Positions 12,029 through 36,212 of a stretch of 64,000 bases of DNA are shown here, piece by piece. This stretch comes from Patellaria atrata CBS 101060 (lineage: Eukaryota): assembly GCA_010093705.1 (NCBI GenBank), contig MU006094.1:1091550-1155549 (forward strand), written 5' to 3'. The notes under the pieces are model-generated. The model was not told where the DNA came from. It was given only the letters and a program-made list of their open reading frames with translations, and searched no databases. Both the position numbers and the translations under genes were made by a program. The first letter of the stretch is position 1; each line of letters opens with the position of its first letter.

Positions 12029-13128
12029 ATCTCATGCGGTCTGAGGGATTGTATAATAGCATTGGGGTCTCAGATTCTTGCACTGAGGTGAAAGGAAAGC
12101 GATGTGGTAGAAAGGCGCCACAACTCTACATTGTACAAACTAACTACTGCTTTCACTATTATCCACTAACGTCAAGCTTAAACGTCGCAATCAAATTATG
12201 GTCTGGCCTTTTCTACGTTCACTGATCTTTGACCGCCCTGGATCTAAATATGTCTCTGGTTCATACGTGTCTCACTATTTCTGTTGAATTGTGTTTGTTC
12301 GACCGTATCACGGTCTATGGCGATCAAACTTAAAATAAATGCGTGTAGGTTCCCGCTCAGCAAAAAATTAAGAATTTGATACAGTCATTTATCTTATAGA
12401 GTTCACTTATTTGTCACTACTTCGATAGTCCTATACACTCCAATCGTGTGTATGCTCTAGTCGTTCTATACCGTCTGCACGATGCACAGCGCTTTCGTTT
12501 GTAAAGGCGCTCCTACTATATAGTGTAATACTTCTTCACATTCATATTGTTCTTTGCAGTATATTCATTGTTGCTGAAGCCCCTTTTCCTCCTTCCGCTC
12601 CTCTGTACAATCCGACCAACAAAGTGCGGCTGTACAACCCGTCGAATCTATCCACGGGGTTTGGGGGGTGTATCACCCACCTATAATATATGTGGAGAGA
12701 AAATTTTAACATGTGATCATGCTGGCGAGTTTTTGTGCTTAGGTGTTGAACTTTTCCTTTCACGTGTGTCTTGAATAGACTAATGTGATAATTGTGAATT
12801 CTTCACTTTACGATGTTTTGGGGGGTTTGAGTCATGTGTTCCGTTCACGTTCTTTGGGAAGGTGCGATGTTAGGTTCGTGACTTCCAAAATATATGGACC
12901 CTGCGTCTTAATTTTCTCGAGCTCTTAGACCAAACACACAGAATCAACCTCAGATTTGTTGTGTTTCTCACCCTTACTCTTTATGTTTACCACCACCAGA
13001 ACGTAATCGCCATCAACCTCTGTCTTGTCCACCTCTGAGGTCACAACATCGATACGCTCTATAAGCTTCTTCGTTTTCCTTTCGCTTTACATCTTCCAAA
13101 ATCAAATTTATCGCTGCCTGCGCTCACC

Positions 13129-16100
13129 ATGTTCTCTACTCGGTGGGACCGTTACGGCAAGGGCGCGTCGGCGGCTCCATCGCAGCCTGTCATCGTTCGA
13201 AGTAACCCTAAGAGTGCCGAACAAAAATGGGTTGAGAATCTTCAGAAGACCTTCCCCAAGGAATGTCAGGCTATCCTCCCTGGTTTCAACGTCGTGGATT
13301 ACTTCGACAAGGACGATCTCCACGTCCACGGCTACGAATTCTTGTCGCGCGTCCTACATACTATGTCTGGCCAAAACCATTGGCGTGCTGTCAGCTATGC
13401 TGTAGACTGGAGCAATGCAAATCAATCGACGCTTCCTACGCTGTGCAATTCTGTTAACCCACATTACATTTTCCCGGAGTCCGACTTTGAAAAGTATGGA
13501 GATAGATTCATGGTCTATATTTTAGGACTCATTAGACAGGCTCTCTACACTACATCTGAAGAGCAAGCCAAGGAGAGAGCTCAACAAGCTGAGAAAGACG
13601 AGCAGTCGAAGGTGGAACAGCAGGCTAGCAGATCTCGGTTCCAGCAAGGGGTTCAATATGATACGAATCCTCCATCTGCTAATATGCAGGTTGTGGCGTC
13701 CCAGGCCCCACCACTATCACGGCGCGGCTCTGAGCTGATGGTACCAAAAGCCCGGGACTCTGACCCAAGACGCGTGGTTTCTGACCAGACTCCACAGCTT
13801 TCAAAAGCTGATCCAGTTCCCCTCCATGCGTTGGAACAAGACATTACCGTCCCTGGCCCTACGGCACCGCCAGAAATCCACCCAAGGGCTGGTAATATTG
13901 AACGCGAAACTGTACGACAGCCCTCTCTATCAAATCTAAACCCAAATCTGGGACCTCAATCTCAGCAGATATTATCGCCAGCACCATTCCAGGTACACCA
14001 ACCTCAACCTCCGCCAGTTCTTCAGGCTCCGTTCGATCCTAATACGGGTCATCTGTCAAGCCAGCATCAACACATACCCCAAGGTATACACCGAGCTAAA
14101 CGTCCTCCTCCGATAGCAGCTCTACCAGGTACATTTCCTGGTATGGCCCCACCAGGTGCATCTTCTGAAATGCCCCCACCAGGTATGAGAACTCCACGCT
14201 CTGAAGAGGCTTGGCGCAACGGCTATGGTCGCGGGAACATGTTCTTGACCCGTAGTAGACCCATGATGGCCATGATGCCGATGAACCCAGCATACTTCCA
14301 ACCTCAGCCACAGATGGGACCTCCAGAATCTATGGTTTCAATGGAGAACTTGATGTTGCCCCACGGTGGAGCGCTAGTTCCTGCTGGTTATTTTCCTCCT
14401 GTCGAACCTTATAGCAACTTTCAAGAAAACATGCAGACACAAGTTGGAACTGGCAGAGGAAGCTTCAGGGGCAGGAATAACCGAAATCGTGTAGGTAGAG
14501 CCGGGTATTCAGGTGGTGGACACGTTCAGAGACGCGGTTCGCTCAATTCCATGCAGCCTCCACCAGGTTTCTTTGGAGCCAACCCGGCACTCCAAACTCC
14601 CTTCGCTGTACGCAGGAATGAACATAGGTCCAGCGATGATACTCACTCTCCTCATCATGCGAGGCCACAATCGTTACGTCTAGTGGAGCCTTTTCCTGCC
14701 TTTGATAACGGCCCCGAAACTGCTACAACACCTCGTGTTCCGCACCATGAGCTTACCAAGGACGACACATGCGATGCCGGCTTTATTGGAGCAAATCGCG
14801 AAGATGTTACGGAGATTTTCGTGGGTAATTTGCGTAGGATGGATCCGAAAGAGCTTGAAATCAAGATTCGGCAGCTGTTCGAGACTGTAGTTCCGGTTGT
14901 TGAAGTAAGGATGGCGGATCATAACCCGAACGGAACGTCCTTCGCATTTGTTCAGTAAGTGACCATGATATAATTACGATGCTTATTGTAGAGTGAAACC
15001 CATTTCTGACTATCTAATTAGCCTACATAGTGTCGCCGATGCGCGAAAGGCACTTGAATTGAACAGGACTCGCGTCGATTTTGCGAATGAACATTGGGGT
15101 CTGCGTGTTTCTGTGCCTATCAAATACCATGAAAATGACGGGCTGCCGAGAACAAGGGAGCAATATGCGAATAGTAACCCCCGCGACAGCGCACAGAAGA
15201 TACCGGAGGATAGGCGGTTCTCATCTGGATCTATCCATCAAGGGGGCATTGGTCTCCGTCGATATTCCTCGAGTCGCATGTCTATTTCGAAAGCTTCTGT
15301 TGAGACCAACGTTCAGTACTCACCTCAGGACGCACGTAGCGGATTCAGTTTTGGTAGGCAAGCCCCTACGTCCGAAAGCACGGGCAGTCCACAGAAGAAA
15401 ATGAAAGGGAAGTCGCCCCAAAAGACCACTACGGAGCGTAAGTCGACTAGTAGCGACAATATGAGTTCAGGTGAAGCACAAGGAAGTGCCAATACGATGA
15501 CACGCTCCCTTCCAAGGCGCCAGGAGCAACGTTCCGACTCCAGCAATATTCCAACTATTGAGGAGGTCACTGCAGAGTCAGAAGTAGGAACAGGATCGAA
15601 GACCGTAGCCGCTGAGCCACCCGTCAAGTCTGGAAAATCGGGAAAGGCTTCTTCTATGAAACCACTTGATCTCACCCTCTCAAAATCTTCTAAACTCAAG
15701 ACCCAAGAAGCAGAATTTGTTTCAAAAGACCCGCACACGGACGAAGTCAAAGAAGGTGAACTACCAGAAACAATTTCACGCGCGACGCAAACAGGCGATT
15801 CTTTGCAACAATCACCCGTCGAAGTCGAAGCTGTGGCGATTTCTACTGATGCCCTTGTGGCATCTTCCCCCGAACATTCTCCTGCCAGACCAGTTGTTGT
15901 GCTTCCTACTCTAGTTCCTGCTAAGACAACTTCTGAAGCTCTGGTCGAGAGTGTCGTCGAAACTCCTACTGGAACTCTTATTCCACCTTCTGAACTGAAT
16001 ACCACGGTTGCTATTCAGTTGGTTGACAAATCTTCTACCAAAGGTGCGAAGGAAACTCAAACTAGCCTCAAAGAGGACGAGAGTCCAACTGCTCATGGTG

Positions 16101-18005
16101 CAAGCGACGAACTAGCTAAAGACGAGGTTCAGGCTCCACTAGGTCCCAAGCACGATCAACAAAACGTGGCGGCTGAGGACACTAAAAGCACAGCAGAACC
16201 CCATCCTAAACCTTTTGTCAAAGATACTGCCTCAATCCATCCATTCGCTCGTCAAAAGGCAGCGAAGAAGCAACAATCGAAGCAACAGCCGAAGAAGAAG
16301 AAGGGTCAGGAGAAGGCCGCTGCTAAGGCGAAACAGATAGAAGCCGCTCAGAAAGCCAACACTGAAGCAGAAGGTCAAGACGTCGGAGATACTGCAGTTG
16401 CTGAAGCGAAAGACAAGTCACCACTTGGTAAATCAACCAACCAAATTGCTGGTACGCATCAAAGTGATTCCGGAGTAACTGTCACTGCAAAAGGTCTAGT
16501 ACCAGAAAGTCAGACCCAGACCTCTCATAATCTTGAAGCATTCGTGGAAGAGAAGGGCGATGACAAGATAAAGGAGGCGCCTGGATGGAAGAGGCGTCTT
16601 ACGGACGCTGTAGCAAAGGTACCAGCGTATTTCGCCAAATCTCAAGCAACAGCTGAGCAGGCAAGCGAATCTGAGAAACAGGTCGAACCAAGGTAAGAGT
16701 CTACGCACTACCTAATCAAAATTGGATAACTGACTGATTTGCACTTCTACAAGCTTAAGTGGTGACACCTCTAGCAAACCTCAACTTGCAATTAATACTG
16801 AGCAAAACCGTAAATCTGATGACAATATAACAGTCGGAGTAGCAGCAACTCAAGTAATAAAGGATCCGGCAGCGTCCACACCCTCACAGATTGTTTCTTC
16901 GACTGATATTACCGTCCCCGCTATTTCTCCACCTCCTAAGGCGAAATCGAACAAGAAGAAGAAGAAGCCTAAGAACAAGAACAAGGGTAACGCTTCCCCG
17001 ACGAATGGTGCTCGCTCAACATCATATTCAATGACGTCAGGCCAGATCGTGCCTGAATCTCCGTATGCAATGGCCACCTCATCTACGGAGCAACATATGT
17101 ATGCTCCGTCAAGCTCACGGGACTTGTATGCCTTCGCCGAACAAATTGAAATTGTCGATGCGCTTATCCAAAAGAATAGGGAACATCCAAGACGCCAATC
17201 CACGCCCACCATGTCTTATCTGAGCGGTAGGCTCGATGAGGTTGTCAACGTGGCTCCTGCCAACGATTCACCGCGTAGAGCAAGAGGAACTCCCGAACCT
17301 TTCATGAAACCAGAGAACGAGTCACAGAAACATCTTGAAGAGTTATTCGGTGCCGTCCCAGGTAAGCAGAGTACTGCATCCGATGAAGCATCTGCATCCA
17401 TCCAAGAACCTACACCCGTGCAAGAATCTGCATCCGTCCAAGAAACTGCATCCATCCAAGAAACTGCATCCGTCCAAGAAACTGCATCCGTCCAAGAAAC
17501 TGCATCCGTCCAAGAGTCTCCATCTCAGGAATCGGAAACCAGTGAAGACGAATTTGAAAGTGCCCTTGAAAACAATCCTGAACAAGTTCTGGGAACGGTT
17601 GCTGGGATAACACCTGGCGATCAACACGATCAAACCTCCGCTGAAGAAGTCATCGAGAGGCCTGATTCACCCGGGACAAACTCTAGTCACACTTTGATGG
17701 GCGACAACGCGGACTATATGAAAATCGAAGAAAGTGTGCTCCAAAGTTCCACACACTCTGTTCATTCTTCACGCCCGAAAGTCCCTGTTGGGGCTATCGC
17801 AGAATACTATGCTAAGAAACGTGCCGGCTATGACAAATCTAAACAGAAGCTTTTGGACAGTGGACGCTTAGACCCGACCAAACTTCCAAAAGACCAACTG
17901 ACGCATGATAAGGTTTTGCCACCTCGCACCACGACCGAACTCTTTATTGAAAGGATGAAAGAGCTGGTTGAAAAGGAAAGGCAGCACCGGGATGACGGCG
18001 AATGA
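13129..18005 (+). CDS. Large (~1580 aa) low-complexity protein with one RRM-like domain; exons 13129-14954, 15022-16692, 16754-18005
   Basis: Three long ORFs join in frame via GTAAGT/GTAAGA..AG introns. RNP2-like EIFVGNL and RNP1-like SFAFV, then SVADARKALELN; RGG-like segment upstream. Confidence 0.75.
17386..17515 (+). repeat. Coding 18-bp minisatellite (QETASV-type units, about 6-7 copies)
   Basis: Repeated CCAAGAAACTGCATCCGT, translating as QESASV-QETASI-QETASV-QETASV-QETASV-QE. Confidence 0.9.
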
Positions 18006-18811
18006 TAAGAAATGTAAGAGCGAGGACAAGTTGGAATCGGCCGAGATATTGGATGACCATGTGTCTCTATGTCTAGTTGAACAGGTTGAATTCAATGGAT
18101 GTTAAGATGTACGATATCTAGAGAGTGATGATCTTCTGGACTGGTCAAGATATGAGGTCTGATAACTCTGTCGATGATTGAATGGGGTCTTATGAAGTCG
18201 GGTGGATAGAAAAAACAAAAAGCCAAAAATAATAATAATAATAATCGGGCTTGGATCACGGACGAATAGTATAGGTTCAAGCAATATACGCTCTGATTCT
18301 CCCCGAATACTCATAATCGTAATGCTGTTCCCATTGCACAGCTGAGTTGTTTGACATGATGAACGTAGTGAAGAAGCTCTTGGGATGCTACTACCTATCC
18401 CATCCTCTCACAATAATATGGTAAAATATATCGTACTACACAGACACCTCCATTGTCTTTATATCGCCCACCATTGTATAAAGAATTACTGCAGAATATT
18501 CTATCGTGACGTTTGAAGCTCCAAAAATTCAACCCCACAACGATCGAATTTTAGCGAGCGCACAAGCACGAGCTCCAACCAACCTCAAGCTTTCTATGGT
18601 GGGAGACGGGCATCGTTCAACATCACCTCGATCTCTACATCAAAGCTTCTCATCCTCCCATAATCAATACTAGGTACGTTATGGTCCTGGAGTCATATAC
18701 GTCGTTGGGATTACCCCGCGGTTGCTGGTGGTGGTGGTGGTGGATGTGGATGACCTGAATTGACATCTAACATAGACCCGGGCTTCTTTGGCATAGAACA
18801 AGAACGCAATC

Positions 18812-19738
18812 ATGGATCAAGCAAAGCTGGCGAAGTTGCAGCAAAGCGTGCGCATTGGTATGTCGAACCTTCCTCTCTGCGGTGGTGGTTGTTTACTCTG
18901 GGAGACCGATACATGGAGTGAATCGAGCTAATATCATTCACAGGGTAAGCATTTTCGGTTTTGTCTTCACACTATGGTTCTTGAGATACTCCACTATAGC
19001 AGTACCATGGAATCGAGCGTGTTCACTAATTCAGTTAAAAATCCCATCTCGTTAATCGCCCATGGAGAATCCTTCCCCTGCTCACTCTTCCACAATTTTC
19101 GGATTTTGTCTTTATATACGTTATCGATATGGACGGCAAGGCTGACGAGATGAATAGCGGCAAAGGTACACCCAGGCGGAAGGTCAAGAAGGTACACAAG
19201 AGCGCGGGCACGGACGACAAGAAGCTCCAGACTGCGCTCAAGAAGCTGAACGTGCAGCCAATCCAGGCGATCGAGGAGGTCAACATGTTCAAGGCGGATG
19301 GGAACGTCATTCATTTCTCTGCGCCAAAGGGTATGTATACTCTCAATTCTCAACTATCCCTCCCTTGACATTCCCTTACCTTGTCCCCACTATCTCTACA
19401 CGAATACCACAATTTCCGCCGACACCCCATCAACCCTCACCCTCCCCAACTTCCAACATCACACTAAAATTTCAAATCGCACAGTCCACGCAGCCGTCCC
19501 CTCGAACACCTTCGCCATCTACGGCAATGGCGAAGACAAAGAGCTCACGGAGCTCGTGCCCGGCATCCTCAACCAACTCGGCCCGGACTCGCTCGCCTCG
19601 CTCCGCAAGCTCGCCGAGAGCTACCAGAGCTTGCAGAAGGAGAAGGGCGAGGATAAGAAGGACGATGATGAGGATGATGACGATATCCCAGATCTCGTTG
19701 AGGGCGAGAATTTTGAGAAGACAGGGGAGGTCGAGTAG
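18812..19738 (+). CDS. EGD1: Nascent polypeptide-associated complex beta subunit (BTF3/Egd1); exons 18812-18857, 18944 (1 nt), 19158-19330, 19485-19738; probable 5'UTR intron 18674-18775
   Basis: [30 protein letters not shown]...[27 protein letters not shown]...[27 protein letters not shown]...[11 protein letters not shown] is the NAC-beta signature. Confidence 0.95.
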
Positions 19739-22700
19739 GGGTTTGTTAGGGATGGGAATAGAGATAGTGAGGGAATGGGGGGAGATTATGGATGTGGGCG
19801 GGGAAGTAGAGGGATGGGGATGGTTTGAGTTTATAGACAGCTCTTACGAGGAGACAGAGGTGAGGGTGGCGTGAAGATCCTTTCGTAGGCTAGGCAGGCG
19901 TAGCGATATATGAGAAAAGTGTAATGCGTCCCTCTTTCTTCTTCGTTGCGAATATGTCACAATGAACCGGATTCTCTCGCTCACTCCATAGGAGTTCGGC
20001 TTCCCTGTAGTTTCAACCGTGCGGAACAGCATCTCTATCTTAGCGTTCGGACTTTTTGACTGTCTCTAACCCGAGAGGACGGCCATTTTTGTCGGCTGGC
20101 TATAGACTCTCTTCGCTACCAGAAGCGTTTGTCGGTATCAATGAATCGAATCCCTTAAAGGGAACGAACGAACGAACAAACAAACTCCAAGCTACGACCA
20201 TAACAAACGTGTTCGGAATCATGGTAACTGACCTCCGCCCTCAACTTCCCCATCAGAAAAAAGCCCCACCGGGGGAAAATAAAATGGATAAGATATACTT
20301 CCTTTTCAAACATATACAGTCTATACGTACGTGTACAGCACTATGAACGTACTATATAAGTACAGTACAGCTACCGAATGCATGCATGATTCCTATATCA
20401 GCTCCAGCCGATCGTTACCGTCAACTCTCTGGTAAATTTTGCTGACTCGAGGGGTATTGGCGCCGTTCCCCAGACCAAGATGCGTGTTCTGTTACTACGA
20501 GCTACGCGTGTTGGGGTGGAGTGTACGTGAGCATAAGTGGAGGTTGGGGTGTATGTTCGTGGGCTCGTCGGAAGTTTTAATGGGGCTTGCGTGGGCGATT
20601 TGGTGCTGTGTGGGGTTTGAGTGAGGTTTGCGTTTGGGATGATGGGGCGGAGAGGGTGAGGTTGTGGGGTTAATTGTGTTTGGGGAGAGGGTTGGATTTG
20701 GGATCTGGTGACGTCGATGGGGGACTGAGGGACATTGGGGTTAGGAGGCGGAGTAGAGTCGATGTTCGGGCTGGAGGTTTCAATGTTGATGTTGATGTTG
20801 ATAGATAACTGGATTCGCTTTGAAAATATCTATATTGACTATACGTCATAAAGGATGTATGCGATATATGTTGAGTTCTTCTGTGCACGATCTGGAGACG
20901 TGAAGTCCTTGTGTGCATCGTTCATCTGATAAACTATCTAGCCACCCTCGACCTTGAGATCAAGGTTCTAGAAAAGTCCCCGCTGTCAGCATCTGCAATG
21001 GGGTATGTATGGTAGCACAACAACCGGGTATGGCGTCGGGAAGGAATGGTAGGGGCCGGGACGCGAGTGGGCGGGCTGGTGGAATCCTTCTGGGATACAG
21101 TGTATACGTTGCTCTGGTTTCTCAGTATAGAAACTACAGACGTGGGAAGTGAATAAAGCTTGGGACTTGGAAAGCAAGATGGCCGAGCATTAGGGCTGTG
21201 CCCCGGGATTGAAGATGGGGTAAAGTTTATCTGTGCAGGGTGGAGAGAAAGAAATCTATACTTGGAATAACAAGATGGATGGCTAGAACGGTAAGGTTTT
21301 ATAATTCATGGAACTAGAGAAGGAGAGTAAGGAAGAGGTTGATAATGTTTGTCTTAACTGTCATCTTATGCCTCGTGGTCGTGGAGATCTCTACGGTTCA
21401 TGATATCAGCGATGCAGCGATGCCTCTTCGACTTGACGTTTTTGTGATTGATCTTCTGTTTCGCATAAACGTTCGAAGGATTTGCTAGGGTTGTATGGAG
21501 CAGATGTTTTAAACGAAACGAAACACTTATTGGATTGGTTAGGTTGGGGAAGACAATATACAAAATATGCGGGCAGCTATTTTTGATCGACGGAAACTGG
21601 AATATGTGCTGGCTGTGGGCGGTTTTGGGTAGGCTGAGAAGGTGGTGGGTGGTGATGGTGGAGTGTTAATATAGAGGAGAACCGATAGAGCGGGCGGGGG
21701 ATTGATGTTGCAGCAGAAACTGTCAGCACACATCATAGTAGTTGATTGGACTTGTGGGACTATACAAGCGGGTGAAATGATTGTGAATTGAAGAAATGGG
21801 TCTGAAAGAGCAATTGTAAGCAGCGGAAAGATGACTTGAGCTAAGAGTTATTCTTAGCTTGGACGGAGCCGCAATATCTAGCTGTGCCGTAGAAGGTTCC
21901 TCGATCAATGGAAGAAATAGAACTTGCAGAGTACATTGATCGATACTTTCCAAAATTACTGTGAGGCTTTGTACCTGCAGACATGAGTGCTGAACCTAAA
22001 GCCACCAACATGTAGCAAGTATGCTGTACACTTCGCTTGACAGTATGCATAGGACAAGGTAATGCTGAGGATGAGGAAGTTACGATTTCGCACATGAACA
22101 GTATAGAGCAATTGTTGCCGCTATTAAATAATGTAAGCAGTCTCGATTCGGCTCTGTATGGCTTCCTTCGACATTGAGATTCTGAGAAGCATGAATTGAT
22201 AGCGTTGAGAAAATGGTTCGCTTATTCCCTTTTCTGCTTGACTCCTTTTGCATCGCCGAAGTAAAAAGGAGTTCTTTTGAGTAGCCGCTGGCCGTTGACA
22301 GTGATATGTATTGACTATCAGGAGAGGAAATGGTGATAGATACTAGCGGCACCTCCTCCTATTGTAACCGCCCGGCTTCTGTAGGGCTGAAGGATTGGGA
22401 CGCACGAGAACGTCTTTCTCCTGTAGATTCAGCGCTTCGAGTGGCCGAAAAGGCCAAACATTTTGCAATATTCAGCCAATGAGAGAGAGGAGATTTCTGT
22501 CGTGGGGTAGAAATACATGTATGAAAGCGACGGTGGTCTAGGAATCGGCCACAGGCGCTTCATGACGATGCTATTGAATTAGATAGATGATATTTTGTTA
22601 GAGAACTCGCCGATGCAGAGTGATAAAAAGACGGTGTTCTCTCCAGTGTCTATGCAAAACGTTCTTGAAGTGTGATAGAAGCTTGTGATACAGTCTTGGT

Positions 22701-24219
22701 ACTGGCATCTAATCAATCTTTGACAGGCACGACAGGTTGAGAGAGTTGAGGTTGGAGTGGTCCCGCAGATCGACTGGAAGCGAATCGAGCCAGTGACGGG
22801 ATGAAAGCCGTCATGAAAAGCTTGGCCTTGATGTTAGTTCCGCCTAGGGCAAACTAGGCCGGCGGTAAATCAACCTCTCAGGCTCTCAACACCCACAGAC
22901 CATCCCCAAACTCCCACCACCTCCATAGCCCTTGATGCAACTGCAGGCACTTCGCCGCTTTCATTCGTTGCGCATCTCTTCGATCCCGGATGAATACGAA
23001 CCCTAATCCCTCTGTCGACCTCCCGGATCTGGGAAGACTGGTGGAGAATTATCCATCCCCTTAGGTCCATTTTGCTTTGGTGAGGCCTGATGTTGATCCT
23101 CTGAAGGATTCGGTGAGAATGAATTCTCCCGGGTAAGACATAACTCAAAGATCTGAGCTGATTTATGATGGTATAGATTACGCATTGAGCTCTTGATGAA
23201 GAGTAATTCCATGAAGGGGAAAAGCAAATCGACGCATGAAAAGTGAATATTGAAAAGATTGTTAAGATGCGAACGATATGCTTTTGTGGCGTCCAGTACG
23301 CAAGGGCGTCGAAGGAGTCGAAGCACGTATATCCCCCAGTGGGCCCCCGCTCAGCACGGCTGTACGGGTGCTAAAGTCTTAGAAAAATGCGTAAGCTCGG
23401 TCCGGCCCTCTTTCCTGGCGGCTGTATGCCTCTCGATAAGATATTCAGTATCTTTTTCGCCTTTGGGGGTGATCGCCACAAATCATTTTTGGCCAATGTT
23501 ACAGGTCAACGTACCGCCAATCGCTGCTAAGGAAAGTCTTTTGCTCTCAAAAGTCCCTAGAAGGACAAGGAGCATGGCATCGGAGCTTGTGGATATGTAG
23601 CTCTGCCTTTGCTTTGCACAACTTTTGCCCTGCCATGAGTCTCGTGTCCCCGGCTCATCACACCTTGGCCCAATAGAATTCATGTGCAAGCGGTTGCGTG
23701 CAACCTACCGTTGGCGTGCGATACTGACTGGCCTGGACCCCTGCATGCAGATTCTCCGCTTCCGCAAGGGACATATGTAACCATTGTCCGCTCCATCCTG
23801 TTATCGCGACTTTGCTTCCTGCGAACCTTTTCCCCACAGCTGTCTGAGTGAACGACCTCTTTACATCTTGTCTCTCTTTTCTCGTTCAATTGTTGTACTA
23901 CTGTGGCTTCATATAATCCCCTCTTGAGGAAGCAGGAATTCCCAAGGACTCCCATAGGAAGAACCACCACCATATAGAAGACCTGTAAACAACTACCATC
24001 TCCACTATACCCAGCGGATCCACTTGTGTTTCACACCGCAAGTCTCATCTAAAATCGGAATTTTGCGCCTGATAGATCATAAGTTGTGCCTTGAAAAATC
24101 AAGATCCTACTCACACTGTTATGTTATAACCGGTTTGGCGACCTCCCGCCTTCAATAGGACCTGGCGAAAGTACCATTCAGTTCATCAAAAGCGTTGACG
24201 AATATTGACCACATCCAAA

Positions 24220-26726
24220 ATGCCTGCACTCCCAGAGTTACTCGCCGAACGGGCAGGCATTGCACTTGAGAGTTTGGAATCAGCAGTTTCAATAGCAGAA
24301 AGAGAAGTTACCGGAGCATTGGTGACTCTAATCAAAAGAGTCAACATTCCATTCAACGACACCAGTCCTGCTGGACTAATCGAGGCGAATACGAGAGATC
24401 CTTTCAGAAAGAGTGGGAAATATGCATTGGGTTGGGTGTACTTTTGTATCATCCTTTTGGTTATTGCGTCTTTGCTGCGTTTCTACCATCTTTTCACGGA
24501 TAAGATCCGCACAGCTCTTTATCAAGAAGAGGTAGCCAAATCCTCAACCACCTCATCCCCTGACACTGATTACGAGTTGTCAGTCCTTGATACTGACAAG
24601 TCAACCAATAAGTTCTTCCCAAGGACAGGACAATTACCTGCTCCTCCTAAAGCACAGTCTTCAGTCTCATCGCTTGGGCCTTTAAACAACCTCATAGCGC
24701 TGTTCAGATTCGTATTCTATCACCCGATCCCAATCATTCGATTGAAGAAAGGATGGAGGCCGATTGTCCTCCCCTCCTTAGGAGTTACAATCATCGTTGT
24801 GGCGGCCTTGATTTTCGTCACCCTGTATACTTTCCTCCCTCAACCTCTATACTGGCAAAGTATGGAATTCGGTTCGCCTCCACTTGCGGTCCGTTCCGGC
24901 ATGCTTGCAGTATCTATGGTACCTTGGATCGTTGGATTGAGCATGAAAGCGAATCTCATCTCCTTCATGACCGGAATCGGACATGAAAGACTCAACGTAC
25001 TACACCGATGGGGTGGCTACTTGTGTCTGTTCTTAAGTCTTATCCATACGATCCCTTATTACATCACCCCAGCTTCTGATGAGGAAGGCCTCCGAATCTT
25101 CAAATCTTACTTTCCGAATAGCAACATTTACATATACGGTTCCGGTACGTAAGCCTCTTTCAAACGATACAATGTTCTAACTTGAATGCAGGTATCGCTG
25201 CACTTGTTCCCCTGCTCTTCCTTTGCGTGCATTCCCTGCCGCAATTTCGGAGACGAATGTACGAGTTGTTCGTTGCTCTACATGTACCAGTTGCAATGGT
25301 ATTCCTCGGAATGCTATTTTGGCACTGCCGGAATTATCTTACATCTTACCACTATCTCTTCTCAACTCTGGCCATCTGGGTGTTGTCTTACATTATGAGA
25401 CTTTTCTACCTGAACTGGTCCAATCCGTGGCGGATGTCCTGGCTTATCGGTGATGAAGCGTCCGTCACGCTCATGCCAGAGAACGCCATCAAGGTGACGA
25501 TACCGACACAAGTACGATGGAGACCCGGTCAATACGTCTACCTTCGGATGCCGGGAATCTCAGTATTCGAAAATCATCCCTTCACTATTGCCTCCCTTTG
25601 TAGCGAAGACTTCCCATCCGAGTATGGTGAAGGTTACAGGGATATGGTTCTGGTATTCCGTCCTTTCGGTGGTTTTACCAGGAAGGTTCTTGAAAGCGCT
25701 TATGAACATGGTCCTTGGCATACCTACCGTGCTTTTATCGACGGTCCATATGGTGGTATGCAAAGACGCATTGAAGCCTTTGATCATGTTGTCCTTATTG
25801 CTGGCGGTAGCGGTATCACTGCAATCGTTAGTCAATTGCTTGATCTGATCAAGCGGATGCGTGACGGAAAAGCAGTCACAAAGAGTATTCAGGTACTATG
25901 GGCTTTAAAGCGACCTGAAACCATGGAGTGGTTTAAGGAAGAGCTCAGAATCTGTCGGGAATATGCACCACCGGACTCCGTTCAATGTCAGTTCTATATT
26001 ACCGCTGCTAAACGTCAGGCAAACACTGGTCACCTGGTGAGCGCACAAACACCGACTCGACCAGTCAGCATGTTCTTCCACGATAAGGTCAACGATGCAT
26101 TCCAGGATATTGCCGATAAGAGATTTTCTGGATTGTCAACTAAGAGACATTCTGCCCTTATCAGAGATGAGGCACGAGGTGACCCAGAACGAGAGAAAGA
26201 GTTGCGCCGAGAGAATGAGGATGCAATCACTGCTCTTCCCCAAGCTCATGTTGTGACTCGTAGTGCATCCCGAGGACATCTTGCACCACCTCACATTGTT
26301 CAACCTACACCAATCAGATCGCTAGCAGAGAAGCGACGATCCAGAAATCTAAGTCTCGACATCAATGCCGCCGTAGATGCAGGATCTGCTGCGCTTGATT
26401 CTCAAGCACAAAATAACTCCAAATCATTCGATTTTGGTTTCCCTTCAACTCCAACCGAATTCCAAAAGAACTTGATGAGGTTCGCTTTCTTACCCGCTGC
26501 TGTCAAAAAGAAGGACGGTTGGAGTACAGAATACGGACGTCCCGATATTCCTTTCACCCTCAAGCAATTCAGCAAGGACTTCGGGCGCCGAACGTGCGTG
26601 TTCGTTTGCGGTCCTCCAAGCATGAGAATAGACGTTAGCAACACAGTCGCAGAACTACAACGTGACGTATGGAGTGATCCCGAGAAAGACGAAATCTTCC
26701 TCCACGCGGAGAATTACGCCATATAA
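24220..26726 (+). CDS. Ferric/cupric reductase (FRE family flavocytochrome); exons 24220-25144, 25192-26726
   Basis: Transmembrane segments with haem histidines (LHRW..LIH, LH..WH), FAD motif HPFTIAS, and NADPH motifs DGPYG, LIAGGSGIT and VFVCGP. Confidence 0.92.
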
Positions 26727-34920: not shown

Positions 34921-36212
34921 TTACTCTTCTACTTCATCTACAATATATCCATCCTTTCTAAAATGCTCTCGAGCGTGGTTATGGCTATCAACTTGCTCAA
35001 CTCCAAAGCGAAGAAACATCTCAAAGTCCGTGAATTCTCTTATTAGGCTACGATTCCCCCTAATCCAAGCCTTTAAGTCATGAAAAGTCGCCTCAATTGG
35101 GTTAAAATCTGGCGAATAAGGCGGTAGATACTCAATTAAAACACCATAACGGGCGCAAAGCTCTCGTAGTGCTGCGGATCGGTGGATAGAGACGTTATCG
35201 AGTATCAAAATCGATCGTGGGCCTGGGTATGCTGAGCAAAATGGAAGCACTCCGTCAGCTACGAACTCGAGGAATAACTCGCTTGTAAAGCTACCTTGGA
35301 AGATCTTATACCCTAAATATCCGTTAGCTGTTAAAGCTGGTAAGATAGACATCTCTCCGATCGCTTAATAGGGCGAGTATTTTCGCATTCTACTCCGATA
35401 GGTGACCAGCCGTATTTTCTATCTCCAGTACGCTCATTAGCCGCTGACTCATCAAGAAACACCAACTGCTCAGTAGTCCAGGTATTCGATCTTCCAACCC
35501 AAGCTCTACGGAGTGGCTGACTTCTCTCGGAGGCTCGATTTCTTACTGCTTTTCGAGACTAACGAGCCCTCTGTAGCGCTCGATAGACACTAGATGTTGA
35601 GATAAACACGTCAAACTCGTCGAAAAGGAATACTTGCATCTCATCAAGGAACGCTGCAGGCTGATCATCTAGATACTCTTAAAGTCTCTACTAAACTCTT
35701 AAAGTCTCTACTAAACTCTTAAAGTCTCTACTAAACTCTTAAAGTCTCTACTAAACTCTTAAAGTCTCTNNNNNNNNNNNNNNNNNNNNNNNNNNNNNNN
35801 NNNNNNNNNNNNNNNNNNNNNNNNNNNNNNNNNNNNNNNNNNNNNNNNNNNNNNNNNNNNNNNNNNNNNTAAAGTCTCTACTAAACTCTTAAAGTCTCTA
35901 CTAAACTCTTAAAGTCTCTACTAAACTCTTAAAGTCTCTACTAAACTCTTAAAGTCTCTACTAATAAGTCGACTGTAGGGAACAAGATCTGAGTCTACGT
36001 ACTCGCTCTTGATGCTCTGTAAGGGACCTTGGACGGCCATTTTTCACAGATGCCGGAGCATACGGCGCTCCAAAAATATCAAAATTTAACTTCAATTTGT
36101 AGATAGTCGTTTTGGATATATTGAGCGCTAGAGCAATAGCCGGAACGGGCTGGTTGTCATCAAATCGCGCCCTGATACGCTGAATTACGCTCTCCGGAAG
36201 CCTCCGACCCAT
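34921..36212 (-). pseudogene. DD34E transposase pseudogene with a probable intron after the HTH exon
   Basis: HTH exon 36212-36003 (..LNISKTTIYK..GRPRSLT), then VFLDESAANERTGDRKYGWSPIG, LILDNVSIH and YLPPYSPDFNPIE. Internal stops and a 1-nt deletion near 35351. Confidence 0.9.
35675..35964. repeat. 20-bp tandem repeat (AAAGTCTCTACTAAACTCTT)n spanning a 100-N assembly gap (35770-35869)
   Basis: Identical units on both sides of the N run, about 4.5 copies each side. Confidence 0.95.

Follow-up and report, generated by a model that had tools for sequence, protein, structure and literature searches.

The EGD1 gene and its putative one-base exon

The window analysed here, a stretch of 64,000 nucleotides from Patellaria atrata CBS 101060, carries a gene which the preliminary description had identified as EGD1 (NAC-beta), and this identity is borne out by a match of the exon 3 region to Pfam NAC (PF01849, E 1.1e-15). 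Exon 3 is 91–100% identical to the best 120 relatives, many of which are named NAC-beta, and a close relative of the window protein matches human BTF3 at E 1e-47. The two features of a NAC-beta/BTF3/EGD1 protein, i.e., the NAC domain and the basic N-terminal anchor, are both present. In human NAC-beta, the basic stretch just downstream of the RIGGKGT position is the ribosome anchor (PMC13186951, in part; citations so marked draw on passages of the source). The gene model reads as follows.

18812..18857, plus strand: EGD1 exon 1, coding part, with ATG at 18812; 15 codons and the first G of Gly16; the same peptide and phase-1 end occur in 77 related loci
18858..18943, plus strand: intron 1, phase 1, 86 nt; donor GTATGT at 18858, branch motif GCTAAT at 18927-18932, acceptor CAG at 18941-18943
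18944..18944, plus strand: exon 2, one G, which forms the second position of the Gly16 codon; G in 77/77 related genomic loci
18945..19157, plus strand: intron 2, phase 2, 213 nt; donor GTAAGC at 18945, branch motif GCTGAC at 19141-19146, acceptor TAG at 19155-19157
19158..19330, plus strand: exon 3, starting with C19158; last base of Gly16, basic ribosome anchor and first part of the NAC domain; skip-frame TGA at 19247-19249
19331..19484, plus strand: intron 3, phase 1, 154 nt; served as the control intron
19485..19738, plus strand: exon 4, coding part to the stop codon, from the joined-frame translation

The donors, branch site, acceptors and single G given in the preliminary description all hold at these coordinates. 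A scripted join of 18812-18857, 18944, 19158-19330 and 19485-19738 yields a protein of 157 aa in which the Gly16 codon takes one base from each of three exons. Inclusion of G18944 restores the conserved glycine motif, RIGGKGT, as had been claimed, with the same spacing as in human BTF3. Without G18944, the direct junction of exon 1 to exon 3 does frameshift to an early TGA (19247-19249), leaving 45 aa, and retention of intron 1 or of intron 2 leaves 39 aa or 16 aa, respectively. Among the joins tried in the window, only the three-intron model that includes G18944 restores the RIGGKGT anchor; the in-frame single-intron joins all remove or substitute conserved residues, and all but two of them rely on GC donors, poor GT donors or poor acceptors. 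G18944 is thus needed for both the frame and the motif, and it lies between a complete upstream intron and a complete downstream intron.

Intron 2 of the window also contains a second branch-like motif, ACTAAT (19025-19034), with a CAG only 5 nt past the branch A, which is probably too close for use as an acceptor. Use of this CAG would give an immediate stop, and the ACTAAT motif was not seen as a conserved feature in the related loci. Elsewhere in the window, the upstream neighbour of EGD1 (13039-18005, plus strand) is a large gene with three long frames and a short tandem six-residue repeat, QETASV-like, near 17400-17520. A ferric-reductase-like membrane protein was recognised by eye at 24199-26726 (plus strand), and an assembly gap of 100 N lies at 35770-35869, far from EGD1.

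Conservation of the layout and the spliced junction in relatives

Taken in the window alone, the motif around G18944 is only modestly unlikely, occurring in 0.03 (strict) to 0.145 (loose) of shuffles of the intervening sequence, so that the proof rests on the comparison of orthologous loci. A metagenome scan yielded at least 286 relatives, of which the best 80 were kept; as these are the closest of the candidates, lineages that lost the exon could be missed. Two of the 80 (L068 and L077) are intron-free and read RIGG, a third (L080) ends 128 nt upstream, and the remaining 77 show the region. In 77/77 of these (best 80 of at least 286), exon 1 ends in phase 1, exon 3 begins in phase 2, and exactly one YAG-G-GT(A/GAG) lies between them (73 by script, 4 by eye). 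The alignment of orthologous loci that had been suggested as a check thus finds AG-G-GT in 77/77, or in 78/78 with the window included. No genomic locus without the exon was seen among these 77.

Similar intervening sequences were collapsed to 53 distinct versions, including the window, whose intron interiors are unalignable (median pairwise score 0.39; the window's best, 0.41). A branch motif together with YAG-G-GT(A/G) is found in 53/53 versions vs. 0.41 expected from dinucleotide shuffles, and the same strict motif is found in 0/47 of the control intron 3 sequences, so that the conservation of the one-base exon among orthologues exceeds chance. The G of the strict motif is never replaced by another letter among the 53 versions, and for intron 1 and intron 2 each the branch motif lies no more than 40 nt from the intron end in 51/53. 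The frame that includes the exon continues for 137-162 codons beyond the junction in 45 of the 47 versions in which all exons were found. The exceptions are L063, which gave 77 codons, and L027, which failed owing to an extra intron that splits exon 1 upstream of the junction; the one-base exon is still kept in L027. The donor position of intron 3 is likewise occupied in 78/78 loci, window included, and this equal conservation means that the persistence of the one-base exon needs no special property. A special "locked pair" explanation is therefore dispensable, as the whole four-exon layout is kept.

Several smaller variations were observed among the versions. Intron 1 measures 475-487 nt in the lineage of L022, L037 and L052, against 96 as the median. 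Intron 2 is longest in the window (213 nt) and in L026 (252 nt); close to the donor (window ~18979-18993), an identical 14-base word occurs in both, possibly by chance, and the two introns are unalignable over the rest. The first base of exon 3 is A in 21/53 versions, which creates a second AG two bases past acceptor 2. Use of this second AG after skipping would give an in-frame protein one glycine short, a reading that is found in several public models; this route is impossible in the window, where exon 3 begins with C.

In a protein tree built from 47 predicted products together with 24 database rows (70 rows drawn; L027 and versions without a located exon 4 excluded), the window product and Dothideomycetes form a clade that has support. 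Clades with support also unite other loci with Pezizomycetes, Lecanoromycetes, Leotiomycetes and Chaetothyriales; one further locus lies near an Orbiliomycete, where the support is not strong. Loci with the exon thereby group with five classes of Pezizomycotina, given class labels that were checked for six species of the tree and that we take to be correct for the remainder. No Sordariomycetes, yeast or basidiomycete loci were recognised among the best 80 of at least 286. Judged from these genomic sequences, the one-base exon layout is common to many distantly related moulds and lichen fungi. The prokaryote and viral collections returned one intron-free BTF3 contig (L081) and two weak, irrelevant matches. 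L081 is a 1012-nt intron-free BTF3 coding contig in a Microbacterium assembly; its BTF3 is, we presume, animal-like, and most likely the contig is eukaryotic cDNA that has contaminated the record of a bacterial genome.

The junction itself was followed in contig ORFs. The matches listed in a first protein search included 70 ORFs called on raw contigs, 48 without exon 1 and 22 with it. In 48/48 of the former, GKGT is preceded by Ser or Arg, the only residues of an AGN codon, which indicates that the phase-2 acceptor is read through. In 22/22 of the latter, the junction reads R(I/V)GG. Two further searches added 14 and 16 ORFs with R(I/V)GG (the 33 contig rows of the second search comprised these 14, another 14 without the region, and 5 others, namely four raw read-throughs and P0187), giving 52/52 intron-free contig ORFs with exon 1. 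All 52 also lack intron 3, and this lack of introns, rather than a label, points to an origin in transcripts, such that the G would be present in the mature mRNA of the relatives. Exon-including predicted products equal database proteins letter for letter in 5/67 loci (L002 = P0149, L022 = P0186, L029/L031/L032 = P0331), and P0186 is itself a contig ORF. The protein identical to the L002 product is one of Cenococcum geophilum. Assemblies drop rare, unstable isoforms from such contig ORFs, and low-level skipping of the exon may occur.

Splicing of the one-base exon and competing readings

We conclude that G18944 is very probably a genuine exon of EGD1, one base long and included constitutively, which goes back at least to the ancestor of the sampled Pezizomycotina classes. 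The original proposal of a single-nucleotide exon is supported by the 157 aa vs. 45 aa frames in the window and by YAG-G-GT in every locus that shows the region; splicing and constitutive inclusion in P. atrata itself would follow from the layout, its conservation and the junction seen in the relatives.

An assembly error, in which one base was lost and a single intron only seems to be out of phase, is extremely improbable. Contigs of two sequencing runs with depths of ~311 and ~435 show no indel across the stretch; an indel had been named as capable of overturning the exon. The runs probably consist of DNA, and the window itself may derive from them, so that they are not independent of it. 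However, the same phase-1/phase-2 mismatch recurs in all 77 independently assembled loci and in all 48 raw read-through ORFs. It is also very unlikely that only one intron exists, running from a GT four bases into donor 1 to acceptor 2 and adding one residue (RIG-x-G). In the window, where the donor would be at 18862, the frame survives such a join, a second GT of this kind exists in 44/53 versions, and 34 database proteins read RIG-x-G. However, only 2 of the 44 sites look canonical, the inserted residue varies among nine amino acids, the reading is seen in 0/52 intron-free ORFs, and the invariant branch point and YAG-G-GT would be left unexplained. The RIG-x-G proteins fit a gene predictor picking the GT four bases into donor 1.

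The claim that gene predictors miss the exon is well founded. The correct junction is present in 7/48 named models (two unnamed rows excluded), in 20/89 cluster members (13 of the 89 without the region) and in 5/81 further NCBI-type models. These counts overstate the error rate, as wrong models cluster apart and the query behind the 5/81 sample was itself a broken model, and the cluster members (20/89) are the fairest sample. Several public models fuse NAC-beta with an upstream neighbour carrying Pfam PF20238, probably another consequence of the missed exon.

Two further candidates from the splicing literature were rejected. A stwintron is ruled out, since GT, branch motif and AG are intact in both EGD1 introns and the frame requires the G. 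A recursive zero-length exon site is ruled out as well, since AG-G-GT occurs in 78/78 loci and a zero length equals the skip product.

With G18944 read as an exon, its inclusion would require only two short introns of the ordinary U2 type, each having a donor, a branch motif and an acceptor of its own and each recognised singly by intron definition; a stepwise intron-definition model has been proposed for Arabidopsis APC11 (PMC4674806). Once either intron is removed, the other would have a normal exon beside it. The G would be unable to change or be lost alone, presumably owing to its place in the middle of an invariant glycine codon that adjoins the ribosome-binding anchor.

The likely order of removal is suggested by one contig ORF, P0187. 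P0177, a raw ORF that covers the final part of intron 1, is terminated by the stop that the unspliced donor 2 creates. The first 45 residues of P0187 equal P0177, and P0187 then continues through the G into exons 3 and 4. P0187 looks like an RNA from which introns 2 and 3 have been spliced out with intron 1 still attached; alternatively, it may have arisen by intron retention or by a quirk of assembly, being a single record from a sister strain of L022, in the long-intron-1 lineage. Intron 2 would then probably often be removed first and intron 1 second, the order reported for plant microexons (PMC8831610, in part; PMC4674806).

The donors differ at single positions. Donor 2 has A at +3 in 51/53 versions vs. 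29/53 for donor 1, and in 46/47 vs. 37/47 for donor 3, comparisons in which the relatedness of the lineages makes Fisher P values overstate the case. The summed U1 match does not differ between donor 1 and donor 2 (P 0.69). The +3A bias would fit selection against skipping. At +6, donor 2 has C in 28/53 versions (GTAAGC in 22), which may come from inheritance or selection, and donor 1 has T in 44/53.

The preliminary description further proposed that skipping would provide an NMD-type switch. Skipping would certainly destroy the NAC-beta protein, leaving 45 aa, but nothing shows regulated skipping. That the real exon acts as a regulated switch, with skipping or the holding back of intron 1 lowering NAC-beta via NMD or nuclear retention, is improbable. 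The skip stop of the window lies 81 nt before the last junction; among 46 lineages (L027 dropped for its extra intron), it precedes the last intron in 40, by more than 50 nt in 35. P0187, as a contig ORF that retains intron 1, is in line with such a switch, as is the frequent detention of the upstream intron of plant microexons (PMC8831610, in part). However, the last exon contains the skip stop in 6/46 lineages, the G is present in 52/52 intron-free ORFs, and any early frameshift in a conserved gene gives an early stop. Neither a conserved intronic regulatory sequence nor weak flanking splice sites were found: the interiors of both introns lack 6-8-mers enriched above the level of shuffles, and the splice sites are equal to or better than the gene's other sites. 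An Rfam search of 20 of the 80 loci gave no RNA family at gathering score, and one of window positions 17500-21000 gave no relevant match (one chance match, E 0.2). A low-power protein search for skip products (query exon 1 plus intron-1 read-through) returned one match, a raw genomic ORF.

Relation to known one-base exons and meaning of the finding

One-base exons are known from other genes but rare, and the EGD1 exon adds to this known class; it is not a new kind of system. Published cases include Arabidopsis APC11 (PMC4674806), plant VPS55 (PMC8831610, in part) and Fusarium CYP621A (PMC12940212), together with 13 one-base exons in 13 genes of Coprinopsis cinerea (PMC12230235, in part) and single-base exons in Candida snoRNA host transcripts (PMC5033589, in part). 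Among the literature searched, in which few subscription papers were covered, no paper on an EGD1/NAC-beta microexon was found.

The closest likeness is to CYP621A, described in 2026 by Nelson and Syed as the first case in a fungal gene (PMC12940212), the 13 Coprinopsis exons having been counted in 2025 (PMC12230235, in part). Like EGD1, CYP621A is a fungal nuclear gene with a single G in AG-G-GT, which occupies the second position of a conserved glycine codon and bridges a phase-1/phase-2 mismatch, and its public models are almost all wrong. However, CYP621A is confined to Fusarium and rarely expressed, whereas the EGD1 exon belongs to a housekeeping gene, and the loci that carry it group with five classes. 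The CYP621A exon has read-level support, whereas that of EGD1 is supported by assembled ORFs of relatives.

APC11 (Guo and Liu 2015, PMC4674806) and VPS55 (Yu et al. 2022, PMC8831610, in part) also have a constitutive one-base coding exon which is deeply conserved and absent from annotations. Stepwise removal by intron definition was proposed for them, and the VPS55 donors are likewise shifted to +3A (PMC8831610, in part). These are other genes in another kingdom, the APC11 base is A, and mutagenesis has proven the APC11 exon. In some lineages APC11 is intronless, whereas among the best 80 of at least 286 EGD1 candidates no genomic locus that lacks the exon was seen. The Coprinopsis and Candida cases show that fungal spliceosomes process one-base exons (PMC12230235 and PMC5033589, both in part). 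The Candida cases are non-coding snoRNA hosts (PMC5033589, in part), whereas no RNA family was found in the EGD1 introns; EGD1 or NAC terms are absent from five text supplements of the Coprinopsis study (PMC12230235, in part). Stwintrons (Fekete et al. 2017, PMC5587772, in part) resemble the EGD1 region as a complex fungal intervening sequence that takes two consecutive splicing reactions. However, in a stwintron one intron interrupts the splice signal of the other and no base survives (PMC5587772, in part), whereas in EGD1 both introns are complete and one base is kept.

In filamentous ascomycetes, most of the public NAC-beta models that were examined contain an error immediately ahead of the ribosome anchor, which a single rule can correct. 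The EGD1 exon spans several fungal classes and lies in a gene whose human product is reported to be ribosome-equimolar (PMC13186951, in part); with so abundant a product, EGD1 splicing intermediates should be easily caught in existing RNA-seq. It is conceivable, though unlikely, that removing intron 2 first makes the removal of intron 1 a slow, controllable step that tunes the NAC-beta supply to ribosome numbers and has been kept since early ascomycete evolution. If this were true, EGD1 would be a subphylum-wide and abundant natural substrate for learning how the spliceosome avoids skipping an undefinably small exon.
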